IMG/VR virus record: IMGVR_UViG_3300030508_000022
Coordinates: 1-64,000 of that record
From: an uncultured virus (IMG/VR IMGVR_UViG_3300030508_000022)
Taxonomy: Duplodnaviria; Heunggongvirae; Uroviricota; Caudoviricetes
Reading direction: 5' to 3' (one strand)
Length of the DNA stretch: 64,000 nucleotides
Shown here: positions 20,888 to 51,855 of the stretch, piece by piece
Numbering within the stretch: position 1 is the first letter of the stretch
How the letters are laid out: each line of letters starts with the position of its first letter
The notes under the pieces: generated by a model
The model's input: the letters and a program-made list of their open reading frames with translations, nothing else
The model's database searches: none
Told to the model about the DNA's origin: nothing
Translations under genes and position numbers: made by a program

Positions 20888-21529
20888 ATGAAAAACTCAA
20901 TTAAAATAATTTGCCATTACTGTGATGAACCAGCCTACAAACCCAAGGGAGAAATAAGTAGGCAAATTAGAAAGGGGGCAGACAAGTTCTTCTGCTCCCT
21001 TTCTTGTTCTGCAAGCTATAGGAACTCAATAAGACCAAATAGGGTAGTAGAAATACATGCAGTGTGTCCACATTGCAAAAAGGAGTTTGATACAGTTTCT
21101 GGTAAGAATAGAAAAACTTTTTGTACCCCAAGCTGTGCATCAAGGGGGAGTATAACTGAAAATAGATTAGAGGGTAACGCCAGGGGTGGTAGGGCTACGT
21201 GTGGAACAAACCTTATTTCGGTTGAAGAAACTCTAAAAAAGAGAGAGGCATGGAAATATGTACGCCTGAAAGATTTTCTTGAATTTCAAAAAGAAGCGTA
21301 TGAGTTTGAGTACAGGATCCCTACCCTTGACTTTGTCCACGACCTTGCTCTAATAAACAGAAAAATAGTTGTAGAGTTTGATGGAGACGAGCACGAAAGC
21401 ATGAAAGCAGAGGACTCTTACAGAGATGGTATTTTGCGTAGCTCTGGGTGGTCAGTATTTAGGATACCAACCAAAAGCAATGCAGTTATTCCACCAGAAG
21501 TTCTTTACCCAATTTTAAAACAAAATTAA
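20888..21529 (+). CDS. Free-standing endonuclease (Zn-ribbon repeats + DUF559/Vsr-like PD-(D/E)xK domain), probable homing endonuclease
   Basis: 'FCSLSC', 'CPHC..FCTPSC'; 'DLAL...IVVEFDGDEH...RDGILRSSGWSVFRI'. Confidence 0.8.
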   Translation: MKNSIKIICHYCDEPAYKPKGEISRQIRKGADKFFCSLSCSASYRNSIRPNRVVEIHAVCPHCKKEFDTVSGKNRKTFCTPSCASRGSITENRLEGNARGGRATCGTNLISVEETLKKREAWKYVRLKDFLEFQKEAYEFEYRIPTLDFVHDLALINRKIVVEFDGDEHESMKAEDSYRDGILRSSGWSVFRIPTKSNAVIPPEVLYPILKQN

Positions 21530-24921: not shown

Positions 24922-26133
24922 ATGTTAGGAGACGAAGAGTATCCATTGGCAGACATTGTCGATGAGATGAAGTACCCTTTTTGCCCAAAGTGCAAATCAA
25001 AGGTAGTAGCAGTCAGTAGTCAGCACTCGGTGTGCCTTGGGAATTGCAAATGGATCGGACCATCATCTAGCATCCTAAGGGGGAATGTCATTCTTAAGTC
25101 ACTGATTGCTCAGGAAGGATTTATCAATCTTTCGTATGGATCACCCAATGGACTAAAGAAGATTGCACAGGATATAGCGAAGAACAAGAATTTCCCTGGG
25201 GGAGATGATGAGATAGATGGTAGAGATGTTGGAGCAGCGAGGTGCTTTATCCCCAAGTTTGACGAATTTGGGGAAGAAAGTGACATCGAAGACTTCATGG
25301 AGTCTACTACCAAAAAGAGTTTTAGACTTGGTATGTTCAACCACATGGAAAAAATTGCAGCTATGACTGCGTGCGCAATGCGCAGTAGCCTTACCCACAA
25401 ACTACTCCGGTTTGCTACATCCAGGGTTGTTGATCAAAACTCAATGGTAAGCAATAGGGAATCGTATCTGCTTGGTGATGACAAAACTCCCAATCCAGAT
25501 CTGTTCCGCAAGAAAGCTGCTATAGAGGTAGACAACAGGAAGTCTGATGAATTTATGACAGTTGTAGATATTTATTCTAGCTCTTATGGTAGACCGGACA
25601 CATCTTTGCATGCAAAGTACACCAAAGAGGGAAGTATTCTACAGAATGAATATCCATCAATGAGTATCTCTAAGCACGCGATGACTTGGCAACCACTCTA
25701 TTGGCCAGCTATGAATCTCGAGTCAGATGACCTAATTCGACTAGCTGCGGTTCTTCAGGGTGGAGACGAGAACATCACCTATATTGTGACAGAGAGTATG
25801 GATACTGGAGAGTTCCATGCTGGAGTATACAAGAGAGAGGTCTATAGCCCAGGAGCTCATTTTATAAAATCCAAAGCAACTACTGTGGAGGATGCGATAA
25901 ATAGAATCAGAACCTCATTTGAGAAAGCTATTGTAGCTGCAGACAGGTCTGGACATATCTTAGATTTTTCCTGGCTTCAAGATTGGCAACAGGATATCCC
26001 ATCAGATACAGCGTTCTTTGATATATTGACTGCCCCATTTTGGGATGAGTCAATAGCTTCAGAGATGTTGCACCTGATCGGTCTTTCTAAGAATCAAGTA
26101 TTAAAAGAAATGTACGAAGAAACACAACAATAG
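24922..26133 (+). CDS. Hypothetical protein with N-terminal Zn ribbon
   Basis: 403 aa; CPKC...CLGNC. Confidence 0.7.
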   Translation: MLGDEEYPLADIVDEMKYPFCPKCKSKVVAVSSQHSVCLGNCKWIGPSSSILRGNVILKSLIAQEGFINLSYGSPNGLKKIAQDIAKNKNFPGGDDEIDGRDVGAARCFIPKFDEFGEESDIEDFMESTTKKSFRLGMFNHMEKIAAMTACAMRSSLTHKLLRFATSRVVDQNSMVSNRESYLLGDDKTPNPDLFRKKAAIEVDNRKSDEFMTVVDIYSSSYGRPDTSLHAKYTKEGSILQNEYPSMSISKHAMTWQPLYWPAMNLESDDLIRLAAVLQGGDENITYIVTESMDTGEFHAGVYKREVYSPGAHFIKSKATTVEDAINRIRTSFEKAIVAADRSGHILDFSWLQDWQQDIPSDTAFFDILTAPFWDESIASEMLHLIGLSKNQVLKEMYEETQQ

Positions 26134-26140
26134 GGGTCCA

Positions 26141-29100
26141 TCAATAATTCCCGAATCTACCGACTTCCATTCCGATGTCGTTGATGTAGGAAGCATTGAT
26201 AGATAGGTTCGTAGCCATACCAGCCATTGACGGCAAATCTGTAATACCTAGGGCTGCCATGAAGATGGCATATCCAAGGGCGTGCAGAAAGTCGTCTGGC
26301 TTGTCCTGATAGCGGCTGTAGCGTCGAATAGTGGCTCCATGAGAGTTTGTTGCGTCCTCAGTGAAGGTAGCGAGCAAATCTCTGGAATACTGCTCGAACC
26401 AGCCTCCCTTAGGAAACCGAATCCGCTGAGCCTTGATAAGAGTGAACACGATGTAAATCAGTGTTGTTCTATCTACGGTAAAGCAATTGTTGGTATTGGG
26501 CATGAAGAACTTCTTGGTGGTCCCATAGGCAATAGAACCTGTGGGCACCCCCATGTAGGCTCCAAGGTTGGGGTTCTGTACGGATCCAACGAATCCAGCA
26601 TCAGCTCCTACAATTTCAATTCTACTTCCGGTTACGCTTTTGAGGTAATCTCCGATAACATAGTGACGCTGCTCATCCGGCAATCCTGTGGGCCTAATAG
26701 CCCCTAGAACGTCGAAGCAGCCGTCTCTGTACCCGACGGCTACACCAACAGTAAAGCTGACCACCTCAGCACCGCCCCAGTCAACGCCCCCAGCTACCCT
26801 GTGGTAGATCTGAGCGTTTGGTGGTTCGTGTTGGTCTATGTCTAAGATACTAGCCTCTTTAATGTCCTTCTGAGTGATTGGAACACCGCCCTGTGAGGTG
26901 GGTATTCCTAAGCACTCTTGGAGAAATCTAGATTGTGAATATGCGCTAGACCCATGAAGTTTATTATAAATAGTTTCGATGTATCTATCGTGTGGAAATA
27001 TACGGTCTGGAACAATAATTTGGGGGACATGATACCCCTCTGAGTCACGGTGGATTGGGTCGTATTCGTACGACCTAATCCACTTTCCTCTGGTCACATC
27101 TATTACCTTGCCACATTTTATGCAGCAAATCCCTTTGATCTGAATCATTTCCAAAACTCTTCCAGCTTCGGTAGGTACATTTTCGTGCCCACACCCACAT
27201 TTCATTATCCACTCGTTTTGAGTCGAGTTTTCAAAAAGCTTGGTAAGTGTGTTGTCAACGCCACGAGCGGTTCCGAAATAGCTTTCGTATCGATAATCAG
27301 ATGTTCCTAATGTTTCTCTAATCTGAGGAATGAAGTCTGCATTAAGATCCTGACAGTTGTGTACGCCTATCCCGTTAGCAAAGAATGTGTGGTTCTTCTC
27401 TGTCTCTATATCATATACATCATCTACCCCAAGGTAGGCAATCCCGACGATGTCTGAGAAGTCCTCAGTGCTTCCTTTTTCTTGAGTTTGTTTTCTCTCC
27501 TTTTTTGTATCTGTTTTGCATGGCGCACTGGATCCTGTCTCAGCCTCATTCCGGTTTCCCTTCCCCTTTTTCTTGAAGCCTCTAAGTTCTCCCAGTATCT
27601 CTCTTTGCGTTTTGTGTTCATGGCGTCTCGATTCCTTTCCACCCATCTTGTCTTTACTCCCTTCTTGGCGATAGCACTGCACTTCTCGCCACAATACGGT
27701 TGGATCCCATTCCCCACGAATGGTTGCCCACAGAGCCTGCATGGCTTCTCCAGGTTTACTTCCTGATAGGCCCACTTGTACTCCATCTCTGGGAATGAGT
27801 ATATCCTGGTGTTTTCTAAGAGCACCTTGGTCCCAACCACATCCACTGTGATTATGTAATACGTCTTGTTCCTGCTTTTCTTCTTTATTTTTATGGCTTT
27901 GCAGCTCACTCCATTTTCTTTTAACCAGCTCACCAATAGACTGGATTCCTCTTTTGAGAATGATTGGGTATTGAACACAAAACTTCTCCCTGTATTGGAT
28001 AGGCTCCCATCGTCCATCATCCACCACGCAATCGCTTCCCAGGTCAAGTGTTTGACCCATTCTTGAGTTACCTTCTTCTTTGGCAAGCCCTTGTCTGAAG
28101 TACCCGTGTAGCAGATCTGGTGTATAGAGTCTAGGCATGGAGCACTTAGGGATCCAAAAACGCAGCTTTTCTCCCCCCAGCCCCTGTTCTCTACAATCTT
28201 GGGCTTTGTCCTCACTAGGTCCCCCAACACTTCCGCTTTGCGGTTGCAGTATCGTTCCTGACACTGGCCGTGTGTTACGTAATACTTGGGGTGGGATCTT
28301 GGAGTGGTACCACCCACTTTTGTCAGACAGGAATCTCCCAATAGTGTCCCAAAGACCATTTGCTCTTGACTGTGATTTAATGGCCTTAGCTTTGCTTGCT
28401 CTTGGGCATCTGTTAGCTTCATGCCACGGTAGTATTTCTGCAAGGTATATCCATCCCCTGTCGGACATGATTCGCTCGTTCCCTGTGCAGTCGAGGTGGT
28501 CCCCGTTGGATAAAATGATTCGCCAGACGTGTCGTTTGCCTTTGTGCTTAATTGATTTAATTGTGTCATATTCTAATTTTAACGTTGATTCGTTAAATCC
28601 AACAATACGATCCCCTGGTTTTTTGTCAACTAGAGTGTCAAGATTGATCCCGTCAAATAGGGCTGTAGAGCCCAAATTGCATTCATCCAGGTAAACTTCA
28701 TCGGTCGTCACCCCCAATGAATTAGATACGTTATTGAAGCAAGAAATGCCCACAAATCTGCTCCCACTTACATAACTCTTTTCGTTGACATTAGCTGTAC
28801 AGGTGTTATTCACAACCGGCCATGGCAATAGCTTGCCCTGGGTCATTGGAGCCATAAACATTGAGTGTAGACGCTGAGTATAAATGCTTAGTGGGGCAAC
28901 ATACATTACTCTAAAATATGACCTCCACCAGCAGTTCATTAATATAGATGCACTGATGCTCGTAGATTTTCCTAATTGACGAGCGCACATGTAAACATGC
29001 TTTCTAACCTTTCTGGTTTTGCTAAAAATCCCAGCAAACATCGGACGACGGTGTAAAATATTTAAAGGTTTCCCTTGGAAACTTATACTTGCGGGTACTA

Positions 29101-29185
29101 GGTCGACCAAGTCGATCTTGTTTGATAGTTGGCCATACAGGCGCTCCAGTTCCTTATCGCTTACTGGGATGATTTGTTTGTCCAT
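26141..29185 (-). CDS. terL: Terminase large subunit, intein-containing
   Basis: Walker A 'ARQLGKS', Walker B 'VYLDE', motif III 'YFGTAR', nuclease 'GGVDWGG' and 'PDDFLHALGY'. Confidence 0.92.
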   Translation of the reverse strand: MDKQIIPVSDKELERLYGQLSNKIDLVDLVPASISFQGKPLNILHRRPMFAGIFSKTRKVRKHVYMCARQLGKSTSISASILMNCWWRSYFRVMYVAPLSIYTQRLHSMFMAPMTQGKLLPWPVVNNTCTANVNEKSYVSGSRFVGISCFNNVSNSLGVTTDEVYLDECNLGSTALFDGINLDTLVDKKPGDRIVGFNESTLKLEYDTIKSIKHKGKRHVWRIILSNGDHLDCTGNERIMSDRGWIYLAEILPWHEANRCPRASKAKAIKSQSRANGLWDTIGRFLSDKSGWYHSKIPPQVLRNTRPVSGTILQPQSGSVGGPSEDKAQDCREQGLGGEKLRFWIPKCSMPRLYTPDLLHGYFRQGLAKEEGNSRMGQTLDLGSDCVVDDGRWEPIQYREKFCVQYPIILKRGIQSIGELVKRKWSELQSHKNKEEKQEQDVLHNHSGCGWDQGALRKHQDILIPRDGVQVGLSGSKPGEAMQALWATIRGEWDPTVLWREVQCYRQEGSKDKMGGKESRRHEHKTQREILGELRGFKKKGKGNRNEAETGSSAPCKTDTKKERKQTQEKGSTEDFSDIVGIAYLGVDDVYDIETEKNHTFFANGIGVHNCQDLNADFIPQIRETLGTSDYRYESYFGTARGVDNTLTKLFENSTQNEWIMKCGCGHENVPTEAGRVLEMIQIKGICCIKCGKVIDVTRGKWIRSYEYDPIHRDSEGYHVPQIIVPDRIFPHDRYIETIYNKLHGSSAYSQSRFLQECLGIPTSQGGVPITQKDIKEASILDIDQHEPPNAQIYHRVAGGVDWGGAEVVSFTVGVAVGYRDGCFDVLGAIRPTGLPDEQRHYVIGDYLKSVTGSRIEIVGADAGFVGSVQNPNLGAYMGVPTGSIAYGTTKKFFMPNTNNCFTVDRTTLIYIVFTLIKAQRIRFPKGGWFEQYSRDLLATFTEDATNSHGATIRRYSRYQDKPDDFLHALGYAIFMAALGITDLPSMAGMATNLSINASYINDIGMEVGRFGNY
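27356..28681 (-). mobile_element. Intein (442 aa) inserted directly after Walker B
   Basis: Begins C169 'CNLGSTALFDG', block B 'LDCTGNERI', ends 'VYDIETEKNHTFFANGIGVHN' followed by +1 Cys. Confidence 0.92.
27424..28422 (-). CDS. LAGLIDADG homing endonuclease encoded in +1 frame inside the intein
   Basis: 'MVFGTLLGDSCL' and 'IAWWMMDDGSL' motifs, 'FNTQSFSKEE', C-terminal CxxC...CxxxC; probable start MKLTD at 28422. Confidence 0.88.
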   Translation of the reverse strand: MKLTDAQEQAKLRPLNHSQEQMVFGTLLGDSCLTKVGGTTPRSHPKYYVTHGQCQERYCNRKAEVLGDLVRTKPKIVENRGWGEKSCVFGSLSAPCLDSIHQICYTGTSDKGLPKKKVTQEWVKHLTWEAIAWWMMDDGSLSNTGRSFVFNTQSFSKEESSLLVSWLKENGVSCKAIKIKKKSRNKTYYIITVDVVGTKVLLENTRIYSFPEMEYKWAYQEVNLEKPCRLCGQPFVGNGIQPYCGEKCSAIAKKGVKTRWVERNRDAMNTKRKERYWENLEASRKRGRETGMRLRQDPVRHAKQIQKRRENKLKKKEALRTSQTSSGLPTLG

Positions 29186-29484
29186 AAATAATAGAAACCA
29201 CTTGTAATAGTGGTGGCAGTTAAAATAAATAAGCTAAAAGGGGTGTTCAGTAAAGAAATTATTGAACACTTTATAAATATATGTATAGTCAAGCATTACA
29301 ATTCTTGTTTGCGCACATCGAAAGATTTGGTGAAAAAATAGTTCTTGCATCCTGCTCCAAAAGAATGGATAAGGTATTACGAGCACCAACCTTTGAAGAG
29401 CTATATGAGAATCCACAACGATATAAAGGTCGCTTCCTTGTATAAAGGAGCACCAACAATTGGTAATGTTACAAATAATTAAAG

Positions 29485-29883
29485 ATGAAAAACAATAAGC
29501 CCCTAACAGCTTACAGCAATAGTAAGCAATTCCTTTGCTGCGTAACTGGAGAAGTTATCCATCCCGAGCGGGTGGAGTATCTCCTTGGGGAGGGAGTATT
29601 AGAATACAACCTAACAAGTATCAATGGTGCCAACGCGACCTATAGGCCAAAAAAGATTATCGTTGTCGACGACGAAGGAACTGAGTTCTTTTGTGACAAG
29701 ATTGACGAAACTAGGGCCTGGTCAGAGGAGCGTTTTGGAGCAGATGCAGATGAAGATTCGATCCCAGAGGAGACTGAAAGAAAAGTCCCCAAAAAGATCG
29801 AAGAGGCTTCCCCTGCTCTGATTCATGAAAGTCTCGACGTTGTTATCAAAAAAGAGGATACTGAAGAGGATGATTTCTCGTAG
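29485..29883 (+). CDS. Hypothetical protein with degenerate DksA/TraR-like finger
   Basis: 'CCVTGEVIHPERVEYL' resembles CxxCGExIPxxRLEAL; acidic tail. Confidence 0.55.
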   Translation: MKNNKPLTAYSNSKQFLCCVTGEVIHPERVEYLLGEGVLEYNLTSINGANATYRPKKIIVVDDEGTEFFCDKIDETRAWSEERFGADADEDSIPEETERKVPKKIEEASPALIHESLDVVIKKEDTEEDDFS

Positions 29884-34628: not shown

Positions 34629-35750
34629 ATGATTAAAATAGCACACATTTCAGATTTACATATCGGTAGTCACCAGTGGGGTAATGTCGGTAGACAAAAA
34701 CACCACGGCAAGAATTTACACAAGCTCGCAGATGAGCTTAAGGATTACGACATCGTGATGATAACTGGAGATGTGTTTGACTCTCCAGAGCCTAGCCCAC
34801 TAGATGTGATCCAGTGGATATACTTCTGCCGAGACCTAAAGGGGTTTGGAGCAGAACTGATAGTTAATGTGGGGAATCACGATATGGTTGTCGGATCTGA
34901 GTATCAGTGGGTAGAGACTGGACTACTTGAGGAGCGTGATATTCACAAGGAGAAATCTGGTGATCTGCACGACACCATATTGGGGATTAAAATACTAAAT
35001 CTTAGTTATATACACAAAAAACAAATTAAAGATGTAATTAATAATATACCGGATGGAATGGACATTATTATGATGCATCAGTCAGCCGCTGGATTCTTAC
35101 CATCAATTGCTAGGCCGCAGCTAGACGAAGAAGATCTCGCAGAGCTTTCAAAGAAGTGCAAATACTTGGCATTAGGCGATCTTCACATTCACAAGATCAT
35201 GAAGCTATCTAATGGGTGTACTGCCGCATATCCTGGTACAAACTTCTTCTTGAAGTTGGGTGAGGAATGCAACGACTTCAAGTTCTTGGAGATCCAGTTC
35301 GACGAAACAAAAAAGAAGGTTTCAAAGATCAAATCCATTCCATATTCTCCAGATCAAGCCTCCTATGTAATAAACCTATTTGAATCAAGTAGCGTACTAG
35401 GTATTGTTGCTAAAGATCCATTTGCTTTTTACATTGTCAGATATACTCCCGCTCAAGAGGATGAAGCTAGGGGGCTAGTTTCTGAAGTCAACAAACACTT
35501 CCCAGGAGCTATCATTCACCTACATAGAGATAAGCCTCCAAAGGTGGCAGACTCCCTAGAGAGCGACAGTGAGGTTACGGAAGATACAGACTTCATATCT
35601 CTTGTAGAAAAAGAGAATAGCCTGGAACAGAGGGATGTAGATCTCGTTAGTGAGATATGGAACAACCCCTCTACAGATAATATAGCTGCAATCCTTGAAA
35701 AGGACTTAACCGAAACGATTCATGAAGCTCAGACACTACACAGCAAATAG
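34629..35750 (+). CDS. SbcD/Mre11 (gp47-like) nuclease
   Basis: 'HISDLHIG', 'TGDVFD', 'GNHD', 'ALGDLH', 'YPGT'. Confidence 0.92.
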   Translation: MIKIAHISDLHIGSHQWGNVGRQKHHGKNLHKLADELKDYDIVMITGDVFDSPEPSPLDVIQWIYFCRDLKGFGAELIVNVGNHDMVVGSEYQWVETGLLEERDIHKEKSGDLHDTILGIKILNLSYIHKKQIKDVINNIPDGMDIIMMHQSAAGFLPSIARPQLDEEDLAELSKKCKYLALGDLHIHKIMKLSNGCTAAYPGTNFFLKLGEECNDFKFLEIQFDETKKKVSKIKSIPYSPDQASYVINLFESSSVLGIVAKDPFAFYIVRYTPAQEDEARGLVSEVNKHFPGAIIHLHRDKPPKVADSLESDSEVTEDTDFISLVEKENSLEQRDVDLVSEIWNNPSTDNIAAILEKDLTETIHEAQTLHSK

Positions 35751-36006
35751 TCACGCACTAGATCTTCTAAATGGAGTAATGGTGTTATTCTCATATGAGA
35801 CTCCAGTGGCGCTAAAGAGTGGTGACACTATCTACCGCTCCTCAACTAAGTACAGCCCTACAACAGGCAAACACATAACTGTGTGGAGACGTAGATTTGG
35901 TTATAACACGCCATTCCTAGAAGTATCTCCAGAAAGATTAGAGAGACTCATAGAAGAGAGGGCTAGGATGTTTTGTCTATACGACAACAGCGATGAAAAT
36001 AACTAG
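35722..36006 (+). CDS. Hypothetical phage protein
   Basis: 'LFSYETPVA...YSPTTGKHI' motif; sits between SbcD and SbcC. Confidence 0.65.
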   Translation: MKLRHYTANSHALDLLNGVMVLFSYETPVALKSGDTIYRSSTKYSPTTGKHITVWRRRFGYNTPFLEVSPERLERLIEERARMFCLYDNSDENN

Positions 36007-37780
36007 AGTAGAACTAAAAAACGTCACTCAGCATAGAGATGTCAATATCGATATCCATGATAACGTCGTTGGCATTATTGGTCAGAATGGATCAGGCAAA
36101 AGTAATTTTGCCTCTTCCATATCTATTGCTGTAACTGGGGAGTTTGGAAAAAAGAAGAAGGACCTGATTACTTATGGAGAGAAAACTGGCTCAATAGAGG
36201 TAAGTGGTATTATCAAAGATGTGCCATTTGTAATTAACAGGAATCTACACAACAACGAAGCATCGTTGGAGTATGGATCGGACACTATCAACGGATCAGA
36301 CGCTGTTACGGATAAGATGTTGGAACTACTGGGGTGCGACAAGTCATTCCTTCCCAATATGGTATTTGTTACTCAGCAGGATATTTTGGGGCTCTTATTT
36401 GGCAGGGCCGCTGAGAGGAATAAGATGCTCCAGAAGTTCTTTGGGTTAGAGAAGGCTGCAAAGATTGAGCAGCTAATTGGACGTTGGAAGTCAAACATCC
36501 CATACCCTGCAATAATTGACGAAAGCCAAGCTAGGGCTGCTATTGAGAGTGTCTCTAAGATGAAGAAAAATCTCGAGGCAGAGCTAGGTGAAAGGAGGGA
36601 TAAAATCTCGTCTCTTCGTGAATTTCTTGACTCTGCAAATGAGGATAAGATTCTTTCCAACAAGAAGAGGGCATTGCGCAAAGAGTCAATTGAAGCAAAG
36701 ATAGAGGAGAAGATCGCTTACAAAGAGTCTCTGTCTAATAGCTTAAAATCACTTACTATTCCCAAGGTAACTAACCTAGACATAGAAAATATCAAAGAAA
36801 GGTTGGCTAGTGCAGTCAAGGAGTCTGGAGGGATCAAGGAGATGATCAAGATTCTTGATGCAGCCAGTTGCTCTCACGACAAAAGTGGCGATTGCTCTAT
36901 ATGTGGGAACAAGTTGACAGAAGATATTGTAGAATCAATGGGTAGAAGGCTTGAGGAATCTCGTAAGGCATCATCCAAGATAGATAGAACCATCTTTGCT
37001 ATATCAAAAGAGTTAGAAGATGCTTCTAGCGAGTTGTCATCGTATGAGACCAAGAGGGATCAATATACTGCCAACATAGATAGCGCCAATACAGCTATTG
37101 AGGTTTTGAAAAAAGAGCTAGAAGATAATCAATGGCCAAAGCACTCATCTGAAGCGTACGAAGGTGGGCTGATGAATATACGAGATGCTCGCACAGAGAT
37201 GAGCAATGCAGAGGAACAGGCAAGTATAATAATCTCCTCCATTGGTGGATTAGTTGATCAGATTGCTCAGCACGAAAAAGACCTAGAGTCTGCCAAGACT
37301 GTGGGACTCAAGTATTCTGGGACTAAGATTCATGAGTCTAGGATTTCTAGGGTTAGAGATGTATTTAGGCATGATGGCATTAGTGGCCTTTATGTAAATT
37401 CCAAGATGAACCAAATGTGTTCATCTATTAACCAATACCTACAAAGCTTCGGAGCGCAATACCGAGTCAGTGTAGACAAAGATAATGATTTTGTGTGTGA
37501 CTTTGGATCCAAGAAGGTTCCAGCGTCAGACCTGTCTTGTGGACAAAAGGTAACACTATCTTTGGCATTTAGGTTTGCTGCTTGCGAGATCTTCTCGACA
37601 GGAGTGGACTTGATAGTCTTAGATGAACCAACCACATGGCTTGACAGAAACACCATTGCAAATTTTAAAGAAATCATCGAAAGTATTTCAGAACTCTCTG
37701 ATAGCCAGAACCTACAAATCCTGACTGTTACTCACGAGAGATCTCTGATCCCATACTTTAGACAAACAATCGAATTCTGA
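35993..37780 (+). CDS. SbcC/Rad50 (gp46-like) ATPase
   Basis: GQNGSGKS, coiled coil with CSICG hook, LSCGQ signature, LVLDEPT-type Walker B, VTH. Confidence 0.93.
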   Translation: MKITRVELKNVTQHRDVNIDIHDNVVGIIGQNGSGKSNFASSISIAVTGEFGKKKKDLITYGEKTGSIEVSGIIKDVPFVINRNLHNNEASLEYGSDTINGSDAVTDKMLELLGCDKSFLPNMVFVTQQDILGLLFGRAAERNKMLQKFFGLEKAAKIEQLIGRWKSNIPYPAIIDESQARAAIESVSKMKKNLEAELGERRDKISSLREFLDSANEDKILSNKKRALRKESIEAKIEEKIAYKESLSNSLKSLTIPKVTNLDIENIKERLASAVKESGGIKEMIKILDAASCSHDKSGDCSICGNKLTEDIVESMGRRLEESRKASSKIDRTIFAISKELEDASSELSSYETKRDQYTANIDSANTAIEVLKKELEDNQWPKHSSEAYEGGLMNIRDARTEMSNAEEQASIIISSIGGLVDQIAQHEKDLESAKTVGLKYSGTKIHESRISRVRDVFRHDGISGLYVNSKMNQMCSSINQYLQSFGAQYRVSVDKDNDFVCDFGSKKVPASDLSCGQKVTLSLAFRFAACEIFSTGVDLIVLDEPTTWLDRNTIANFKEIIESISELSDSQNLQILTVTHERSLIPYFRQTIEF

Positions 37781-37922
37781 TGGAAACAGAAAATGATGAT
37801 AATGAAGAAGATAATCGGTGCCCTATTTGCGATAATATATATCCACACAACCACAACGAGCAGACGTGGAAGGAGTTTGATGACTTTTGGAGCAAATTAG
37901 GGAGCGAAAATAAAAAATAACC

Positions 37923-38594
37923 ATGATACAAGTAATCGTAGACATCGAAACAGAACCTCTCTCAAGAGAGGAGATAGAGGCAGTAATGCCTGAGATCAAG
38001 GCAGCAGGGAACCTCAAGGACCCAGTAAAGATTGCTGCTGATATTGAAGATAAGAAGGCTAAGTTCTATGACCAAGCAGCCCTAAATCCACTCACAGCAA
38101 AAGTGTGTGCAGTGGGTGTCTGGGAAGTAGGCAAGGCGTCTCCAGTACTACATCACTCAAAGGACGAGAAAGACCTGATAACGGTATTCTCTAATCTGTG
38201 TGTTGGCAATGTCAGCGGTGTTCCAGAGATTGAGATAATTACATTCAATGGTATCTCATTCGATATTCCATTCTTGTGTAGGAGAGCCCTGAAGTATGGC
38301 AAGAACCTATTCCCATGGTTCTTCGGCATTGATGGTTCTCTTTCCAGGAATGCGCCATTGATTGACTTGGCTGCTATTTGGGACTGCCGTAGAAAAGATT
38401 ACGTCAGTCTGAATGAGCTGTCTATCCACCTAGGGAATGGAACCAAGACAAAGAGCAAGGAATTGTTCTGGCAGACACTCAAGCGAGATGTGAAAGAGGC
38501 TGAGGCTTATCTCACACACGATCTGAGTCTGACCTACGAAAATGCAAAATCCATGGGACTTATCAATGACCCACCTGAACGCACTGGAACCTAA
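37923..38594 (+). CDS. DEDD 3'-5' exonuclease (PolB-exo-like)
   Basis: ExoI 'VDIETE', ExoII 'TFNGISFDIPFL', ExoIII 'YLTHD'. Confidence 0.88.
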   Translation: MIQVIVDIETEPLSREEIEAVMPEIKAAGNLKDPVKIAADIEDKKAKFYDQAALNPLTAKVCAVGVWEVGKASPVLHHSKDEKDLITVFSNLCVGNVSGVPEIEIITFNGISFDIPFLCRRALKYGKNLFPWFFGIDGSLSRNAPLIDLAAIWDCRRKDYVSLNELSIHLGNGTKTKSKELFWQTLKRDVKEAEAYLTHDLSLTYENAKSMGLINDPPERTGT

Positions 38595-38657
38595 GACAGC
38601 ATTCAAGTTGTTCAGAAAAAAGGCTAATGGAGATATCACGTCTCTGTCAAATTGAGT

Positions 38658-38686
38658 TGATCAGGCCGCAGATACAGGGTAGTGTC
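38658..38686 (+). promoter_or_regulatory. Sigma-70-type promoter candidate
   Basis: TTGATC-N17-TAGTGT upstream of glycosyltransferase. Confidence 0.4.
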
Positions 38687-38760
38687 TGGTACCTTGCCAA
38701 CTGAATAAAAGTAATTGGACCGGTAAATACACAAAAACACAAGAAGATCGTAAAAACAAA

Positions 38761-39774
38761 ATGAAAGTATTATTTATACTAAAACTAAGACATGACTATG
38801 ACAGTTCTTATGGAGCCAAGGGGTTCTCTAGTGGATTGCAAAACTCAGCGACATTCGTGTCGGACATGCTAAGCAACAATTGCGTAGACTCAAAGATCGA
38901 GATTGTCGTGGACGGGAATTCCATCGATAGGGTTGTTACACAGCACAAGCCGAACATCGCTATCATTGAAGCACTGTGGGTAACTCCAGAGAAATTGAAG
39001 GAGCTTACTAAGCTGCACCCCAACATCACCTGGGTGATTCGGAATCACTCTGAGATTCCATTCCTAGCGAACGAAGGTATTGCTACGGACTGGGTCTATC
39101 AGTATGCACAGATCCCTGGGGTGTTTGTTTCGTCAAATACCGTTCGGTCATGCGAGAACATTTCTGTGTTCACAAAACAGAGAACTGTCTACCTGCCGAA
39201 CTACTACATCCACAAGAAAGTGGATAAGTTTGAACTTCCTACAGTACATAATGATGTAATTAACATTGGGTGCTTTGGAGCCATCCGGCCACTAAAGAAC
39301 CAGATGATGCAGGCAGTGGCTGCTATTGACTACGCGGAACGGAGTGGCGAGGTTCTGCACTTCCATATAAATTCCACGAGATTGGAGCAATGGGGTGCGC
39401 AGGTATACAAAAATCTAAAGAACCTATTTGCCAACAATGGATACCACGAACTAATCGAACACGAGTGGAAAGATCACAATACGTTTTGCTCTCTCATAAA
39501 GAGCATGGACGTTGTACTTGCAGCTAGCTATACAGAAACATTCTGTATCGTTGCAGCGGATGCTGTGTCTCAGGGCGTTCCTGTTGTATCTAGTGAAGAC
39601 ATCTTTTGGCTAAATAGCCTAAAGTGCAACCCAAACGACAGGAAGTCCATTGTCAGAGCTATAATCAAGTCACAGGGTATTTTAAAGCCCCTCTACTTGA
39701 TGAAGCAGAGGAATTCTCTAGAGAAGTATCTTGGTGATTCTTGGCAGCAGTGGATAGAGCAAGTACGCGATTGA
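38761..39774 (+). CDS. Glycosyltransferase (GT-B, GT4-like)
   Basis: 'FGAIRPLKN', 'SYTETFCIVAADAVSQGVPVVSS'. Confidence 0.85.
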   Translation: MKVLFILKLRHDYDSSYGAKGFSSGLQNSATFVSDMLSNNCVDSKIEIVVDGNSIDRVVTQHKPNIAIIEALWVTPEKLKELTKLHPNITWVIRNHSEIPFLANEGIATDWVYQYAQIPGVFVSSNTVRSCENISVFTKQRTVYLPNYYIHKKVDKFELPTVHNDVINIGCFGAIRPLKNQMMQAVAAIDYAERSGEVLHFHINSTRLEQWGAQVYKNLKNLFANNGYHELIEHEWKDHNTFCSLIKSMDVVLAASYTETFCIVAADAVSQGVPVVSSEDIFWLNSLKCNPNDRKSIVRAIIKSQGILKPLYLMKQRNSLEKYLGDSWQQWIEQVRD

Positions 39775-39806
39775 CATCCTCCCCGGCCTTTAGGCCGGGG
39801 ATTCCC
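39771..39806 (+). mobile_element. Solitary IS200/IS605-type end (remnant)
   Basis: TTGAC-ATCCTCCCCGGCCT-TT-AGGCCGGGGATTCCC hairpin resembling IS605/TnpB termini. Confidence 0.55.
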
Positions 39807-39813
39807 ACTAAAT

Positions 39814-41271
39814 ATGCAGAGCACAATGAAAGTAACAATCACCAGATCTGGAGGGTACTTACGAATAGATCCGATCATTCCAGATCTTCTCGCAAAACTA
39901 TCTTTCTCTTACACAGTGAGGGATAAAATTAAGAAAAAGTTTTTTGATCAAAAGACTGGAAAGATGCGAGAGGTGTTTGTAGATGGTCCTATTGGTTCTG
40001 TTAAGAAGAACCTGTACAAAATAACAAAAGATGGGAATGGGGTAATTACGTACGATGGTCTATTGACCCTAGTAAAGAAAACCCTATTCAAGTTAAAATA
40101 TGAGATTGATATCCTTGAACCGAATGGTGCTATTTACGAAGAACCAGAAATAACCGAAAGGGTATTTGAAGGTCTCTATCCAGATCAAAAAACTGCGGTA
40201 GAGGCTGTCCTGAGTCACGATGGTGGGTGCTTAGTAAATGCAGCAACCAATACTGGTAAGACAAGGATAATCGCGGCACTCTGTAGGGCTTTTAGCAAAC
40301 ACAGGGGATTGGTTGTAACCAACCGCCAATCTGTAGCTACAAAGCTTTATAAAGATCTGCAGGATCTTGCTCCCGAGTGCGATCCAGGCGTCTACCTTTC
40401 ATCAAAAAAGGCGAAGGGTAGAACTATGGTAATAACATCAAAATCTCTACAAAAGTTTGATCCAAGTAATATTAGTTATATTCTGTTCGATGAGGCGCAT
40501 TCAGCATCAAGTCCGGTTACGTCAGAGCAATTGTTAAGATTCAAAACATCCAAAAAGTGTGGGTTCTCTGGAACCCTATCTGGTGGATTCAAGGGGCTTT
40601 CAAAATACCTTGAGTCTGTTTTTGGACCAACCGTGTTTACCTTAACAGATCAGGAGCTAGAGGAAATGGAAAGGGCTACTCCACTACATGTCTACACTAT
40701 AAAAGTAGACAAAGGGGTCCAGTTCTCAAAGACAACCCAGAATCTCACAATGGAGAAAAATGGGGTTTGGTACAACCGTCACAGGAACAAGCTACTTAGC
40801 GAGTGCGTGAATCTAGTCCCCAAAGACCAACAACTAGTAATCTATGTAAGAACTCTAGCGCACTTAGAGGAATTGATGTCCGACTATCTGAAAGACAGTG
40901 GATTTGAGATATACCACGGTAGCATATCTACAAAAGAGAAGATTAGGGTTATGGGTGGATTCAACTCTGGAGATATGAAGAGAATCATCTCTACTGACTG
41001 CCTGGCAGAGGGTGTAGATCCCAAGGCGCTGTTTGTGACTATAAATGCCAACTGGACTCAGTCTGATGTTTCGGTCCTTCAAAAAGCTGGAAGAAATAGA
41101 AGGTTGACAGAGGGTAAGGGGTATGGAGTAGTAATAGATTTCAACGACATGTGGTGTGAGAGAATGCAAAGAAAATCAAAAACTCGCATAGACCTATACA
41201 AATCAAGAGGATACAAATTATTTGAAGATGTCTCACCAGACCAAATACAATTTTTACAAGATGCAACCTGA
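39814..41271 (+). CDS. Superfamily 2 helicase (UvsW-like)
   Basis: 'AATNTGKT', DEAH, 'SGT', 'EGVD', 'QKAGR'. Confidence 0.9.
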   Translation: MQSTMKVTITRSGGYLRIDPIIPDLLAKLSFSYTVRDKIKKKFFDQKTGKMREVFVDGPIGSVKKNLYKITKDGNGVITYDGLLTLVKKTLFKLKYEIDILEPNGAIYEEPEITERVFEGLYPDQKTAVEAVLSHDGGCLVNAATNTGKTRIIAALCRAFSKHRGLVVTNRQSVATKLYKDLQDLAPECDPGVYLSSKKAKGRTMVITSKSLQKFDPSNISYILFDEAHSASSPVTSEQLLRFKTSKKCGFSGTLSGGFKGLSKYLESVFGPTVFTLTDQELEEMERATPLHVYTIKVDKGVQFSKTTQNLTMEKNGVWYNRHRNKLLSECVNLVPKDQQLVIYVRTLAHLEELMSDYLKDSGFEIYHGSISTKEKIRVMGGFNSGDMKRIISTDCLAEGVDPKALFVTINANWTQSDVSVLQKAGRNRRLTEGKGYGVVIDFNDMWCERMQRKSKTRIDLYKSRGYKLFEDVSPDQIQFLQDAT

Positions 41272-41917
41272 AGAAGTAGATGCCAGTTCGCTAGCTAGAA
41301 AATGCCAGCGAGTCTACGAGTGCTTTAGGGGGCGATCAGCCCCTGGGTACAAGTGCGGCAAAAAGTTTGATAGTGAATGGTTCAAGTTGGCCAATACACT
41401 TATTAGACTAAAAGCAGATCCAGTAACCTACCTAGAATCACTTTTTGAGTGCTGGGGTGGTGCTCCATTTGTAAATCAACTGTGCTCCCCGAGAGCACAG
41501 AGCATTTACAACAATTATCTCAACAAAGGGAAAACCATTGGCGAGCTGGAGTTTACAAACCAAATAAGATACCTCAATGACGCCATAGCTTTCTATACAA
41601 AAACTCATGGAGAAGTCGACAATATTCTTGGTCTAGACTTCGTTCCGGTGAAGGCATATATTCGTATATTGCTATGCAGCGAGGACGTTTTACCAGAGTT
41701 TTTAGAAAGATATGGGGCAACTGCATACGCGGAGGTCAAGGCCAACCCATCAATTGACAAATATATAAAGGATACCTATGTCTCAAGATACAACAGATTA
41801 TTTCCACAAAGACTTTCAGAGGTCGATGATAGCGCACACGATACGCTGCCCGAGCCTTCTAAGGTACCTGCACGAAGGCAGATTTACCCACAACGACGTA
41901 GAGCTACCGATTCATAG
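41261..41917 (+). CDS. Hypothetical replication-operon protein
   Basis: ATG 41261; between helicases, overlaps DnaB-like gene by 140 nt. Confidence 0.6.
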   Translation: MQPEEVDASSLARKCQRVYECFRGRSAPGYKCGKKFDSEWFKLANTLIRLKADPVTYLESLFECWGGAPFVNQLCSPRAQSIYNNYLNKGKTIGELEFTNQIRYLNDAIAFYTKTHGEVDNILGLDFVPVKAYIRILLCSEDVLPEFLERYGATAYAEVKANPSIDKYIKDTYVSRYNRLFPQRLSEVDDSAHDTLPEPSKVPARRQIYPQRRRATDS

Positions 41918-43169
41918 TGGAATCTTAATTGCAGCCAAAAAGATACTGAATGTTCAGGGGGTAGTACCCACCGAATGTATCCCAGTAGAACTCCTGGCAA
42001 TGCATCTCAAGGAGATGATTGAATCAGGAGATATTTTGGCTACAGAAAGAAAACCACTAATAAGAGAGGTTGAGGCAATCTATGACATGAAACTCCACGA
42101 GGAGTACTTCCTTAAAATTCTTCCTGCATTTCTGTCTGAGATAAAAATTTCAAGATTGATCAGTGGATATAAGAAGGGTACGCCACAGGAGTTTGCCAGT
42201 AAGATATCTAAGGCGCTTGAGGAATCAAAACCAAGTAGTTCAAAATCTGTATCCATAAAGCCTCTTATTGATTGCCAGATGTCCGATGTTCCGGTTGAGT
42301 ATGTCCCATGCGGGATTAACGCAATTGACTCTAGGATGAATGGCGGTCTTGGTAAGGGGGAGTTTGGAGTAGTTTGCGGTGTTTCTGGTTTAGGCAAAAC
42401 AACCGTAGGGATTAACTTTTGTTGGGGAGCTTGCCTCTCTCACAAGAAGACACTACTAATCACCCTAGAGCTGCCACAGAAGAAGATCTCAGAAAGGTTG
42501 TATTCCAGAATGACCCAGGTTGATTACAACAGGATCAGGTATGGTGATGATGGTGACATGGATAAAGTTAGGGATGAGGTTCATCAGATTAGGGATACAT
42601 TTCCCCTAGAGGTTAGAGCAAACTTTGATATCTGGGATTATTCAGAGGAAGCTTGCTCCCTCAAGATGATAGAAAATCGATTGGCTGGACTGTCCCCTGA
42701 GGAGATGCCAGACATGATCTTCCTTGATTGGCTAGACGCCCTCGAAACAGACCCATCAGATAGAAGCAATGGGTATGTATCCAGAGAGCTGCGACACCAG
42801 CTTCAGAACTACTCTAAGGGATGCTCTGACATCGCAAAGAGATTTAACGTGGCATTTTGGACAGCAACCCAGGCAAATGCCAAGGGGGATGGACAGAGAG
42901 AAGTCCGTATGTCAAACGCAGCAGAGGGCTTTAGTAAGTCATGGCGATGCTCAGTCTTTCTTGGAATCGGCGCAACTGACCAAGACAGAGAGGGCGGGAG
43001 AATGACAGTTAAGGCAGGCAAGATGCGAGACGGACAGATATTTGAATCACAAATTCTCGCAAGGCTAGACAAACAGACCTTTGAGGATATCCCACCAGAC
43101 CTGCTCAATGCAGTTCCAAGTGCGGCAAATTTTACTCCAGTAAATAGACGAACACAGAACACACGATAG
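41778..43169 (+). CDS. dnaB: Replicative DnaB-like helicase
   Basis: GVSGLGKT, 'ITLEL', 'FLDWLD', 'WTATQAN', 'KMRDG'. Confidence 0.88.
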   Translation: MSQDTTDYFHKDFQRSMIAHTIRCPSLLRYLHEGRFTHNDVELPIHSGILIAAKKILNVQGVVPTECIPVELLAMHLKEMIESGDILATERKPLIREVEAIYDMKLHEEYFLKILPAFLSEIKISRLISGYKKGTPQEFASKISKALEESKPSSSKSVSIKPLIDCQMSDVPVEYVPCGINAIDSRMNGGLGKGEFGVVCGVSGLGKTTVGINFCWGACLSHKKTLLITLELPQKKISERLYSRMTQVDYNRIRYGDDGDMDKVRDEVHQIRDTFPLEVRANFDIWDYSEEACSLKMIENRLAGLSPEEMPDMIFLDWLDALETDPSDRSNGYVSRELRHQLQNYSKGCSDIAKRFNVAFWTATQANAKGDGQREVRMSNAAEGFSKSWRCSVFLGIGATDQDREGGRMTVKAGKMRDGQIFESQILARLDKQTFEDIPPDLLNAVPSAANFTPVNRRTQNTR

Positions 43170-43170
43170 T

Positions 43171-43509
43171 ATGGAATACACAGAACAACGACCAATACAG
43201 CAATGGCCAATTGGAAAAGTTGGAGACTCGGCGGACCTAGGAGAAATAGTAGGTCTTGAGTTATACTCCTCAGAGATGGACATAACCTATCAAGAGGACG
43301 ACGACAGAGAGGCAATTGTCATTGCGACATTTGTCTCACCAGATGATGAAATAAATGTTTATAAACTCCCCTTTGACCCGGTGCTGTTCTCTCAGCTTTC
43401 TGAGATCTTCAGGAACTATGCGTTGAAGCACATAAACAACCTAGGAACCCCTGCCCAGGAATATAGGGCAACAAAAACCAAATACGGATACGAATTCGAT
43501 CTCACATGA
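43171..43509 (+). CDS. Hypothetical protein
   Basis: 112-aa ORF in operon. Confidence 0.6.
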   Translation: MEYTEQRPIQQWPIGKVGDSADLGEIVGLELYSSEMDITYQEDDDREAIVIATFVSPDDEINVYKLPFDPVLFSQLSEIFRNYALKHINNLGTPAQEYRATKTKYGYEFDLT

Positions 43510-44558
43510 GTCTATCCTTTGAAGAAGTAGAACGAGTCTTTCCTGAAGCTCAGCAGACTTTTTCCAGGGATCATACAGAATTCACCGTACACTGTCCACG
43601 CTTCCACAAGAAGGGTGGACGGTATAAGATGTCCATCAACGCTGACACTGGCGCATACATCTGTCACGACTGCGGACACGCCGGCAATGCCTACAAAGAC
43701 TTCTTCGACGAGGGTCGTCAATTCTTTATAGGAATGAAGGTTCGTAGACCCAAAGACTCTGAGACATCGTGTCAGGTATATCGATCAAACAGAACAATCT
43801 GGAAAGACGATATTCCTGTCCCTGGTGAGATGGTAAAGATGAGTAGTCTTGAGGACAATCATCCCGCTGTAGAGTATCTAACCCAAAGAGGCATCTCTAT
43901 GGAAGATGCTGACCGATTCAAGTTGTCATACTGTACTGATGGTACATATAGGTTCAGTGACAATATGGGAACTACCTCTGGGAGAATTATATTCCCCGTA
44001 GTCATGGCTGGTACCCTTATGGGGTGGCAGGCACGACAGGTGGAAAAGGTAAATGATCGCGGGGATAGGATGATCTGGAAGGGAGATGCCTTCGGTTGGG
44101 ACATAATGGAAAAGATCCCGCTTGAGGGTGGTGGGTTTCATTGGTCAGATCACCATGTCCCAAAGTATTATACTTGCCCTGGAATGCAGCGAGCAAGATC
44201 CCTATTTAACTTTGATAAAGCCGTCAAAAATGAAGGATATGTCGTTGTTACTGAAGGGCCAATTGATGCTCTAAAGGTAGGGTGCTGCTCTGTCGCCACC
44301 TTTGGAAAGAAACTAACACGAGATCAAATTAGGATAATTTGCACCAACTGGACTAAGATCATTATGATTTTGGACCAGGATGTAAATACCCAAGACGAAT
44401 GGTTCAAGAGACTTGAAGATTCGTTCAAGGGGGTATATCTTTTAACTATGAAGCTTGAAGGATTCAAGGATCCAGGTGAAGCACCTAGGTCGGAAATCTG
44501 GAAGCAGATTGAAGCAAAATATGGAAACCCAAATGACTACCGCCCAAAAGTACCCTGA
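43506..44558 (+). CDS. dnaG: DNA primase (Zn finger + TOPRIM)
   Basis: CPRFH...CHDC, 'YLTQRGI', 'RIIFP', 'VTEGPIDAL', 'LDQD', 'KDPGE'. Confidence 0.9.
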   Translation: MSLSFEEVERVFPEAQQTFSRDHTEFTVHCPRFHKKGGRYKMSINADTGAYICHDCGHAGNAYKDFFDEGRQFFIGMKVRRPKDSETSCQVYRSNRTIWKDDIPVPGEMVKMSSLEDNHPAVEYLTQRGISMEDADRFKLSYCTDGTYRFSDNMGTTSGRIIFPVVMAGTLMGWQARQVEKVNDRGDRMIWKGDAFGWDIMEKIPLEGGGFHWSDHHVPKYYTCPGMQRARSLFNFDKAVKNEGYVVVTEGPIDALKVGCCSVATFGKKLTRDQIRIICTNWTKIIMILDQDVNTQDEWFKRLEDSFKGVYLLTMKLEGFKDPGEAPRSEIWKQIEAKYGNPNDYRPKVP

Positions 44559-44787
44559 TGACTTTGAAGATATAATCTATCAATCAATGCTCTCTATGGA
44601 AAGCGACAATGGTGTTGTTCACCTTCCTGACGTGATCAAACTCGTCAGTAAGAGAGTGAAGGCCAAGATCAATCCAGAAAGCGTATTCATCTTTATGAAG
44701 CGCATGTGCGAAGAGGGTATGGTAGAGAAAGTTTCCCACAATCACTACAAAGCGATTGAGTTCGATCCGAACTTCTCGTTCAGTTAA
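44533..44787 (+). CDS. Small winged-helix-like protein
   Basis: 'VFIFMKRMCEEGMVEKVSHNHYK' wHTH-like end. Confidence 0.5.
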   Translation: MTTAQKYPDDFEDIIYQSMLSMESDNGVVHLPDVIKLVSKRVKAKINPESVFIFMKRMCEEGMVEKVSHNHYKAIEFDPNFSFS

Positions 44788-44880
44788 TAGTACTGCGCCT
44801 ACCCATTGGTAGGCTATCGTAGATCGCCACAGCCCCGCGCAAGGGGCTCGTTGCGTCTGCACACAAACACACACAGAAGT

Positions 44881-48511: not shown

Positions 48512-48543
48512 TAAAAACAAAACTAAATAAACTAAAATAACAT

Positions 48544-49758: not shown

Positions 49759-49766
49759 TAAAGTGG

Positions 49767-49786
49767 GAGGGGGCTTCGGCCCCCTC
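49767..49786 (+). other. Stable C(UUCG)G hairpin between SSB-like and recA
   Basis: gagggggc-ttcg-gccccctc, no U-tract. Confidence 0.6.
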
Positions 49787-49809
49787 TCCAAACCAAACAA
49801 AATAAATTT

Positions 49810-51793: not shown

Positions 51794-51855
51794 ATACAGA
51801 GTGTATGCTAGTTTACCCAAAACTTCAATACCCAAATAACAAAACATAATAAATT

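Follow-up and report, generated by a model that had tools for sequence, protein, structure and literature searches.

We report that the terminase large subunit gene (terL) of an uncultured Caudoviricetes virus, contained in a 64,000-nucleotide window (IMG/VR record IMGVR_UViG_3300030508_000022, positions 1 to 64,000), very probably carries an intein at its Walker B motif whose homing endonuclease is a separate gene, overlapping the intein-coding sequence in the +1 reading frame of the same strand. The support drawn from sequence comprises two open frames, selection on the nuclease, avoidance of stops in the host frame and a patchy spread over terminases and superfamily 2 (SF2) helicases. Codon statistics, frame-specific selection and start placement in relatives, and structure models all support the original prediction for this DNA, in which the intein is dual-coding, its nuclease is made separately and the linker is a passenger. 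The host gene is divided as follows, with lengths in amino acids (aa) and a slash marking the insertion point within a motif.

26141..29185, minus strand: terL, terminase large subunit, intein-interrupted, precursor of 1014 aa (PHROGs phrog_675, E 9.4e-29)
28682..29185, minus strand: N-extein, aa 1-168, ending in YLDE (phrog_2 match at aa 55-178; collinear with the intein-free L003)
27356..28681, minus strand: intein, 442 aa, C169-N610, lying between YLDE and CQD, with Cys1 at its start and His-Asn at its end, then Cys+1
26141..27355, minus strand: C-extein, 404 aa, starting CQD (76% identity to the intein-free L003, which has DE/VQD)

In the open reading frame (ORF) reading of the window, terL (29185-26141, minus strand) runs for 1014 codons with zero internal stops, which bears out the earlier claim of a stop-free terminase/intein frame. 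Terminase large subunit family matches in PHROGs flank the insert on both sides, and both intein ends are recognised, with a Pfam Intein_splicing score of 41.7 bits and a TIGR01443 match at the C end; the closest PDB sequence match of the intein is the Spl DnaX mini-intein (7cfv, E 2.3e-13). Within the N-extein, we take RQLGKS to be a Walker A-like motif and YLDE to be Walker B.

The +1 frame is open from 28572 to a TAG at 27426-27424, that is, for 49 codons further upstream than the ATG at 28422 from which the nuclease was originally predicted to start, and contains the following features.

27424..28569, minus strand: nested homing endonuclease ORF, 381 aa at its longest and 332 aa if begun at ATG 28422 (candidate starts ATG 28569, TTG 28443 and ATG 28422)
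28333..28350, minus strand: LAGLIDADG motif 1, GTLLGD, with Asp30 of the 332-aa form (aligns to I-SceI motif 1)
28006..28026, minus strand: LAGLIDADG motif 2, WWMMDDG, with Asp137 and Asp138 (aligns to I-SceI YWFMDDG)
27679..27741, minus strand: four-Cys zinc-finger-like motif, C228xxC231...C244xxxC248, followed by basic helices (YacG-like, E 0.0019)

The +1-frame product matches Pfam LAGLIDADG_2 with an E value of 1.5e-24; together with the motif reading and the YacG-like match, this confirms that both LAGLIDADG motifs and the zinc finger lie in the +1 frame. Among 41 aligned homologues, G25, G29 and D30 of motif 1 and W134, D137, D138 and G139 of motif 2 are invariant, and of the lysines at catalytic positions, aligned to I-SceI and I-WcaI, K216 is invariant and K116 is present in at least 90%. 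All four finger cysteines are invariant in the 8 rows of alignment A1 (the nuclease and its 7 best homologues). An AlphaFold2 (AF2) model of the 332-aa form has a mean predicted local distance difference test score (pLDDT) of 93.7, its best Foldseek matches being I-WcaI (E 6e-15) and I-SceI (E 3.5e-14), with a fold match to 6x1j at E 6.2e-15 and a root mean square deviation (rmsd) of 3.0. The nuclease is thus predicted to be a monomeric I-SceI-type LAGLIDADG enzyme with an extra zinc finger and basic tail. As to the claim that it has its own ATG and TAG, the TAG at 27424 stands; ATG 28422 is a doubtful start and ATG 28569 a better candidate. The exact 332-aa and 381-aa forms are absent from a 15-billion-protein collection in which the host protein is present, and nested nucleases of this kind are easily overlooked in annotation.

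The host frame over the same DNA resolves into two Hint regions and a linker.

28382..28681, minus strand: N-terminal Hint region, intein aa ~1-100 (pLDDT 69-94 per block of 10)
28475..28489, minus strand: block B, CTGNE, with Thr kept and Glu69 where His is usual (alignment with CTGNH of 7cfv, 4o1r and 1mi8)
27470..28366, minus strand: stop-free host-frame linker, intein aa 106-404, a predicted disordered passenger translation of the nuclease gene (pLDDT < 50)
27356..27469, minus strand: C-terminal Hint region, with block F VYD424IE and the terminal His-Asn (sequence and AF2)

In the AF2 model of the intein as read in the host frame, confidence is confined to the Hint ends. The modelled ends adopt a Hint fold (4o1r, the Npu DnaB intein: Z 20.2, rmsd 1.7, 125 aligned), and in a structure search with the intein model the top 32 rows were all Hint-type folds. 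The middle had been described as motif-less; no nuclease family was matched there, and pLDDT is below 50 over residues 106-404. A canonical full intein has its nuclease in frame between the Hint halves, whereas here Pfam places LAGLIDADG_2 in the +1 frame only; nor is the gene fractured as in a split intein, since the host frame is unbroken and has no stop.

We asked how readily such an overlap could arise by chance. A host-frame stop results wherever a nuclease codon ending in T precedes a codon starting with AA, AG or GA, and codons ending in T occupy 0 of 74 such at-risk sites compared with 45 of 164 comparable codons elsewhere. When codons are drawn by genome usage with the nuclease protein held fixed, the expectation is 23.3 ± 3.8 host-frame stops, and no draw among 5000 has fewer than 12; the actual sequence has none, and not one of 20000 shuffles of the gene's own codons reached zero. 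In the reverse test, with the host protein fixed, 9.3 ± 2.4 nuclease-frame stops are expected (minimum 1 in 5000 draws) and again none is observed. These codon statistics indicate that the ~1-kb double coding is real and kept by selection.

The two frames also differ in how they evolve. Among the 19 pairs compared, the ratio of nonsynonymous to synonymous substitution rates (dN/dS) was 0.09-0.36 in the nuclease frame for the 12 pairs that could be estimated (6 were saturated and 1 identical) and 1.19-2.34 in the host frame for 17 of the 19. The window locus is 37-40% identical to four relatives in the nuclease frame and 17-20% identical in the host frame. This frame-by-frame comparison, proposed earlier as a check, found the nuclease frame constrained and the host frame relaxed; it points to purifying selection in the nuclease frame only, clearly in the relatives and by the identity contrast for the window locus, and suggests that the linker is a passenger merely required to stay open. 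The locus would then offer a clean natural kilobase overlap, with selection for protein function on one frame and for openness alone on the other.

To place the element among its relatives, we searched with a profile of the nuclease and its 7 best homologues and compiled 239 loci, the best 80 of 147, 455 and 242 confirmed matches in three collections. In 141 of the 239 a second same-strand frame is open across the nuclease domain, the nuclease lying at +1 in 46 loci (25 viral and 21 metagenome, counting duplicates and two copies of the window locus) and at +2 in 95 (15 metagenome, while the other 80 come from the genome collection and are nearly all cyanobacterial). After deduplication, the 35 distinct +1 domains (the window and 34 others) contain 0 host-frame stops against 583 expected. 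The nested class is defined by its open frame, and the non-nested rows serve as the control: in each of the 77 distinct non-nested homologues, neither same-strand shifted frame has fewer than 3 stops. The Pfam scan covered 30 host proteins. At +1 the hosts comprise 4 SF2 helicases and a set of terminases, of which 6 were identified by Pfam and the others by eye; at +2, the 7 hosts scanned of 95 are 4 DnaX and 3 helicases. Insertion is mostly directly after the DE or EE of Walker B. With dozens of phage loci, the out-of-frame layout is common at Walker B sites.

Several observations bear on how the nuclease is made. In 15 relatives a nuclease-frame stop lies at most 30 codons from motif 1, and in 14 of these an ATG falls within the gap, compared with 5.3 expected (P about 2e-6, relatedness ignored). 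Sigma-70-like sites matching 10-11 of 12 positions occur just upstream of the start in 5 of the 15, four of them at p <= 0.025 by synonymous resampling; these near-consensus sites, in L025, L026, L029, L031 and L103, lie within the host frame just before the nuclease, and L029 additionally has a hairpin of -18.1 kcal/mol covering the ribosome site and the ATG. Together, ATGs behind stops and promoter-like sites upstream suggest a cassette with its own start, and in the relatives separate internal initiation is favoured over frameshifting. In the window itself, the two corresponding candidates are as follows.

28602..28629, minus strand: candidate internal sigma-70-like promoter, 10/12, best site in the region, 33 bases before ATG 28569; a lead only
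28566..28610, minus strand: candidate hairpin pairing ATG 28569 in the long terL message and lost from the candidate-promoter transcript (z -1.66); a lead only

The region contains 9 sigma-70-like sites against 6.8 ± 2.4 expected, and 5% of synonymous resamples reach the candidate. Predicted mean pairing at the 28569 start is 0.81 in the long message and 0.10-0.15 in the short transcript (p 0.03-0.08 by resampling). On the phage's own start profile, 97% of internal ATGs score below ATG 28569 and 87% score below ATG 28422. In the closest intein-bearing relative (P0159/P0100, C-extein 85% identical), for which the protein alone was available, the Tyr-Asp pair able to spell the 28569 ATG is kept, and Glu stands where His spells the 28422 ATG in the window; in favour of 28422, an ATG occurs at about that position in 13 of 31 loci. 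On balance ATG 28569 has about an even chance of being the start, ATG 28422 is a distinctly weaker candidate and TTG 28443 weaker again. Among relatives, strong Shine-Dalgarno (SD) sites were counted in 19 of 29, an uncontrolled count that may partly derive from the block-B Gly-Trp codons.

The distribution of the insert among terminases is consistent with mobility. In a TerL tree of 72 rows, nested inteins stand beside empty alleles several times, the neighbour of the window being the empty L003 (76%). The TerL search supplied 60 proteins, 44 of them lacking an insert at the Walker B site and 16 bearing an intein there, and those with at least 60% identity comprise 11 empty, 3 full (the window included) and 1 mini. 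Such interspersed empty, mini and nested alleles fit repeated gain. The position following the insertion site is Cys in all 16 intein-bearing TerL-search proteins but in only 1 of 50 empty alleles of a first set (Val 34, Ile 14, Leu 1; three further rows, non-empty or unaligned, were left out) and 1 of 44 empty alleles of the TerL-search set (Val 26, Ile 11, Thr 5, Tyr 1), so that homing probably carries the Cys codon along. The target proposed earlier, YLDE/CQD, is accordingly rare among natural empty alleles, most of which have DE followed by Val, Ile or Thr, as in DE/VQD of L003 and DE/TQD of P0101, P0102 and P0106.

We infer splicing, expression and cleavage by the terL element from its sequence, and envisage the following cycle. 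Ribosomes on terL would traverse ~300 disordered linker residues, and the Hint halves would fold around this loop and splice the intein out, restoring TerL. Translation of the nuclease would begin at an internal start of its own, possibly on a transcript from an internal promoter, and the enzyme would cut intein-less terL near the Walker B codons during co-infections, whereupon repair would copy the intein together with the required Cys+1 codon. This would uncouple homing from terminase expression.

The splicing domain itself is unusual. Class 1 inteins have Cys or Ser at position 1, a terminal His-Asn, Cys, Ser or Thr at +1, a Hint fold, a block F Asp (rather than the Cys of class 3) and, in block B, Thr and His. 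Here C1, H441-N442 and C+1 are present, and across 21 aligned rows D424 of block F is invariant and T66 of block B nearly so. By these remaining residues the intein appears class 1-like, in an atypical form lacking the His. The splicing motifs, earlier described as intact, are therefore so at the termini (Cys1, His-Asn, Cys+1, and the Pfam and TIGR matches) and not at block B, where CTGNE has Glu for His. The His is likewise absent from all 14 parsed intein-bearing relatives in the TerL search (one more row was unparsed), mini-inteins included, 7 of them having Glu. Reading block B by eye in 31 distinct +1 loci gave 22 with His and 9 without, and the His is present in 86 of 86 parsed +2 loci. 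The His-less clade is of interest for splicing chemistry.

A number of points weigh against the account given here. The block-B position departs from the class 1 pattern, with Glu69 in place of His, and splicing would thus require a compensating mechanism. Of the 4 pairs involving the window locus, 3 have saturated synonymous divergence, which limits what can be said of recent selection on that copy, and DNA scans aimed at close relatives returned nothing beyond the sequence of the window itself. An SD signal occurs at 8 of 52 starts in the window phage compared with 21% of random sites, A/T-rich starts being used instead, so that the nuclease start cannot be read off; this low SD use is also a hint about the host group of the phage. 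The promoter and hairpin leads are individually weak (p 0.03-0.08) and were spotted post hoc, and a start-hiding hairpin is not general, since pairing reached p <= 0.005 in L013, L029 and L094 and not in the other 12 of 15 relatives. Finally, the patchiness of the insert can also arise from repeated loss.

Four other explanations would keep the sequence as it stands. The nuclease may be intact yet no longer expressed or homing, with only a stop-free host frame under selection; decayed forms at the Walker B site (L059 with a deleted nuclease and the minis L313, P0103 and P0115) fit this, as does the fact that no candidate start combines a clear signal with conservation. We consider it unlikely, because the ORF is untruncated and retains every catalytic residue, and a fixed host protein alone would leave the 9.3 ± 2.4 nuclease-frame stops that are missing. 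A programmed +1 frameshift from the terL message, fusing the nuclease to the N-extein and N-terminal Hint region, seems marginally less probable still. It would suit a +1 frame that is open 57-86 codons upstream of motif 1 in the window locus and several near relatives, and the lack of an ATG within 35 codons of motif 1 in L010, L012, L092 and L116; against it stand the ATG in the short gap of 14 of 15 relatives with an upstream stop, five with a 10-11/12 sigma-70-like site before the ATG, and in L010, L012, L015 and L092 there are ATGs farther upstream in the open stretch (no search for a conserved slippery site was made). That the His-less intein cannot splice, leaving terL dead or otherwise rescued, is improbable. 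According to PMC6333167, no intein residue is more conserved than the block-B His, and many inteins cannot do without it; here it is Glu. The same paper describes a small natural group of His-less inteins with a bulky -1 residue, and the -1 residue in terL is Glu. Moreover, terL is present as one copy only in the 73-kb G000, which is part of a longer genome, the 1-kb frame has been kept open, and the 14 parsed relatives that also lack the His have full exteins. Were the insert instead a group I intron that encodes an I-SceI-like nuclease and leaves at the RNA level, this would suit the closest solved nucleases, I-WcaI and I-SceI, which are intron-encoded, but an intron would need no open host frame, and an in-frame Hint fold occupies both insert ends. 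No Rfam match at E <= 1 was found in 26000-29500, a search that a divergent core could escape, and we hold an intron to be highly improbable.

A last alternative concerns the assembly, in which two compensating indels might have shifted an ordinary in-frame nuclease. Paired indels would leave ~23 stops in the shifted frame and none is seen; the exact 966-aa protein spanning the intein was found on 10 contigs (JGI/IMG, Logan, ENA), and the layout recurs in 34 other distinct loci. The identical DNA records L009 and L088 may not be independent of the window, and support at the level of single bases comes from codon statistics, repeated assemblies and homologues. On this evidence an artefact is scarcely credible, and the earlier argument that a single sequencing indel does not give this pattern holds. 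The separate, overlapping +1 gene in a Walker B intein remains the explanation that we prefer.

The out-of-frame layout as such is already known from the cyanobacterial DnaX intein, for which a same-strand +2 LAGLIDADG nuclease has been described by Phillips, DeSimone and Gogarten (10.64898/2026.09.14.751524), crediting Gorbalenya 1998; there the layout was called rare and the ancestor of the nuclease was not found. The terL element would work like this dnaX-type non-canonical intein, with which it shares the strand, the overlapping frame, a disordered host-frame linker, an I-WcaI-like fold, purifying selection on the nuclease frame and the same kind of site, DE/C after Walker B; the nuclease profile also retrieves cyanobacterial loci, and the best PDB match of the intein is the Spl DnaX mini-intein. 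It differs in frame (+1 rather than +2), in host gene (phage TerL), in the C-terminal zinc finger and basic tail of its nuclease, and in lacking the block-B His found in every parsed +2 locus. Related nucleases in split, nested and in-frame states make the 'splicing first, nuclease captured later' model testable.

Among phages, a TerL intein in Walker B has been reported, and splicing argued to be necessary for TerL function, in PMC5050341. The non-canonical inteins of actinobacteriophages (Gosselin, Arsenault and Gogarten, 10.1101/2025.01.02.630785) likewise include many in TerL with the nuclease outside the host frame, and invasion by a free-standing nuclease was proposed as their origin; as far as the accessible text of that preprint goes, they comprise antisense LAGLIDADG, antisense VSR-like and frame-3 endonuclease VII-like types, and a sense-strand +1 LAGLIDADG is not among them. 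No report of a sense-strand +1 LAGLIDADG in a terminase intein was found in a literature search that lay outside subscription journals and preprint supplements, of which the actinophage ones could bear on it. In the ShiLan phage methylase insertion (PMC11855218), a hidden nuclease with its own start and stop likewise lies out of frame in a stop-free host frame; there it is an HNH nuclease and no splicing domain is described.

Fractured genes, as described in Dassa 2009 (PMC2677866), have split inteins with a free-standing endonuclease between the halves. Homologues of the present nuclease do lie between split Hint halves in the dnaX-like L027, L035, L117, L123, L131 and L138, whereas the terL host frame is continuous and its intein unsplit. 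For I-TevI and Aeh1 mobE, PMC2988022 describes a design in which a hairpin conceals the start in long messages and initiation at an internal promoter exposes it. The stretch 28629-28566 is a weak candidate for the same design, with the difference that the promoters there are mapped T4 late promoters accompanied by an SD sequence, whereas terL has a sigma-70-like match and its phage makes little use of SD sites.

I-SceI and I-WcaI are intron-encoded in fungal mitochondria. The terL nuclease resembles these LAGLIDADG_2 enzymes in both motifs, in the catalytic Asp and Lys positions and in fold, and differs in a zinc-finger and basic extension of ~115 residues that they do not have.

In trees, the window locus falls among +1 phage elements and outside the dnaX group, with weak deep nodes. 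A single clade for 28 +1 rows gave a p-AU of 0.061, in a tree with weak deep nodes and long branches that meet, and the order of events (split, +1, +2, in-frame) is not resolved by these trees. In the Hint tree, the Hint of the RecQ-like L015 pairs with that of the window intein, suggesting host-gene switching between Walker B motifs. A wider and tentative reading, which we would sooner doubt than adopt, is that of an undescribed, widespread lineage of Walker B inteins moving among phage terminases, SF2 helicases and clamp loaders, with all stages of nuclease capture (free between split halves, +1, +2, in frame and mini) and a phage reservoir of the dnaX nuclease. The window branch would splice without the block-B His, its homing would write Cys over Val, Ile or Thr, and ~60 bases would serve as Hint strand, internal promoter, start-hiding hairpin and nuclease start.

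Further loci show related inserts in other contexts. Two +1-nested TerL inteins (L012:833-4219 and L016:3244-6579) lie four residues upstream of the usual site. SF2 helicases with related inteins at DE/CH or DE/CQ are L015, L044, L103 and L118 (+1), L127, L134 and L159 (+2) and L045 (in frame). Seven dnaX-like genes on viral or metagenome contigs (L027, L035, L117, L122, L123, L131 and L138) have an intein split at Walker B with a free LAGLIDADG_2 nuclease between the halves, and the nucleases of these split loci carry N-terminal Cys-Gly-Cys-Gly repeats. A decay series is found at the Walker B site, from L059:3616-4401, with its nuclease partly deleted and the host frame still open, to the mini-inteins L313, P0103 and P0115, of which P0103 retains a remnant of the linker start. 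Close nuclease homologues in L091:1735-3675 and L089:64-1651 adjoin a terminase C-part with no continuous host frame, L091 being without a Hint match and L089 having the Hint C end in broken frames; these are possibly other arrangements or errors. In annotated phage genomes only distant nucleases were found, at 25-30% identity in 8 records.

In the related terminases L005, L006, L281, L295, L309, P0108 and P0114, further inserts whose ends resemble those of inteins occur at Walker A or close to Walker B, and TerL of this family appears to be an intein hot spot. Within the window, an antisense ORF of 185 codons (28137-28694, plus strand) over the N-terminal Hint region and nuclease start gave no Pfam match. 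A replication block at 34629-51012 (plus strand) encodes SbcD-like, helicase, DnaB-like helicase, primase, DNA polymerase and UvsX-like recombinase proteins, which could provide repair for homing. The window also contains two further nuclease genes, one HNH-like (20888-21529, plus strand, phrog_1271) and one endonuclease VII-like (50972-51847, minus strand, phrog_1035).

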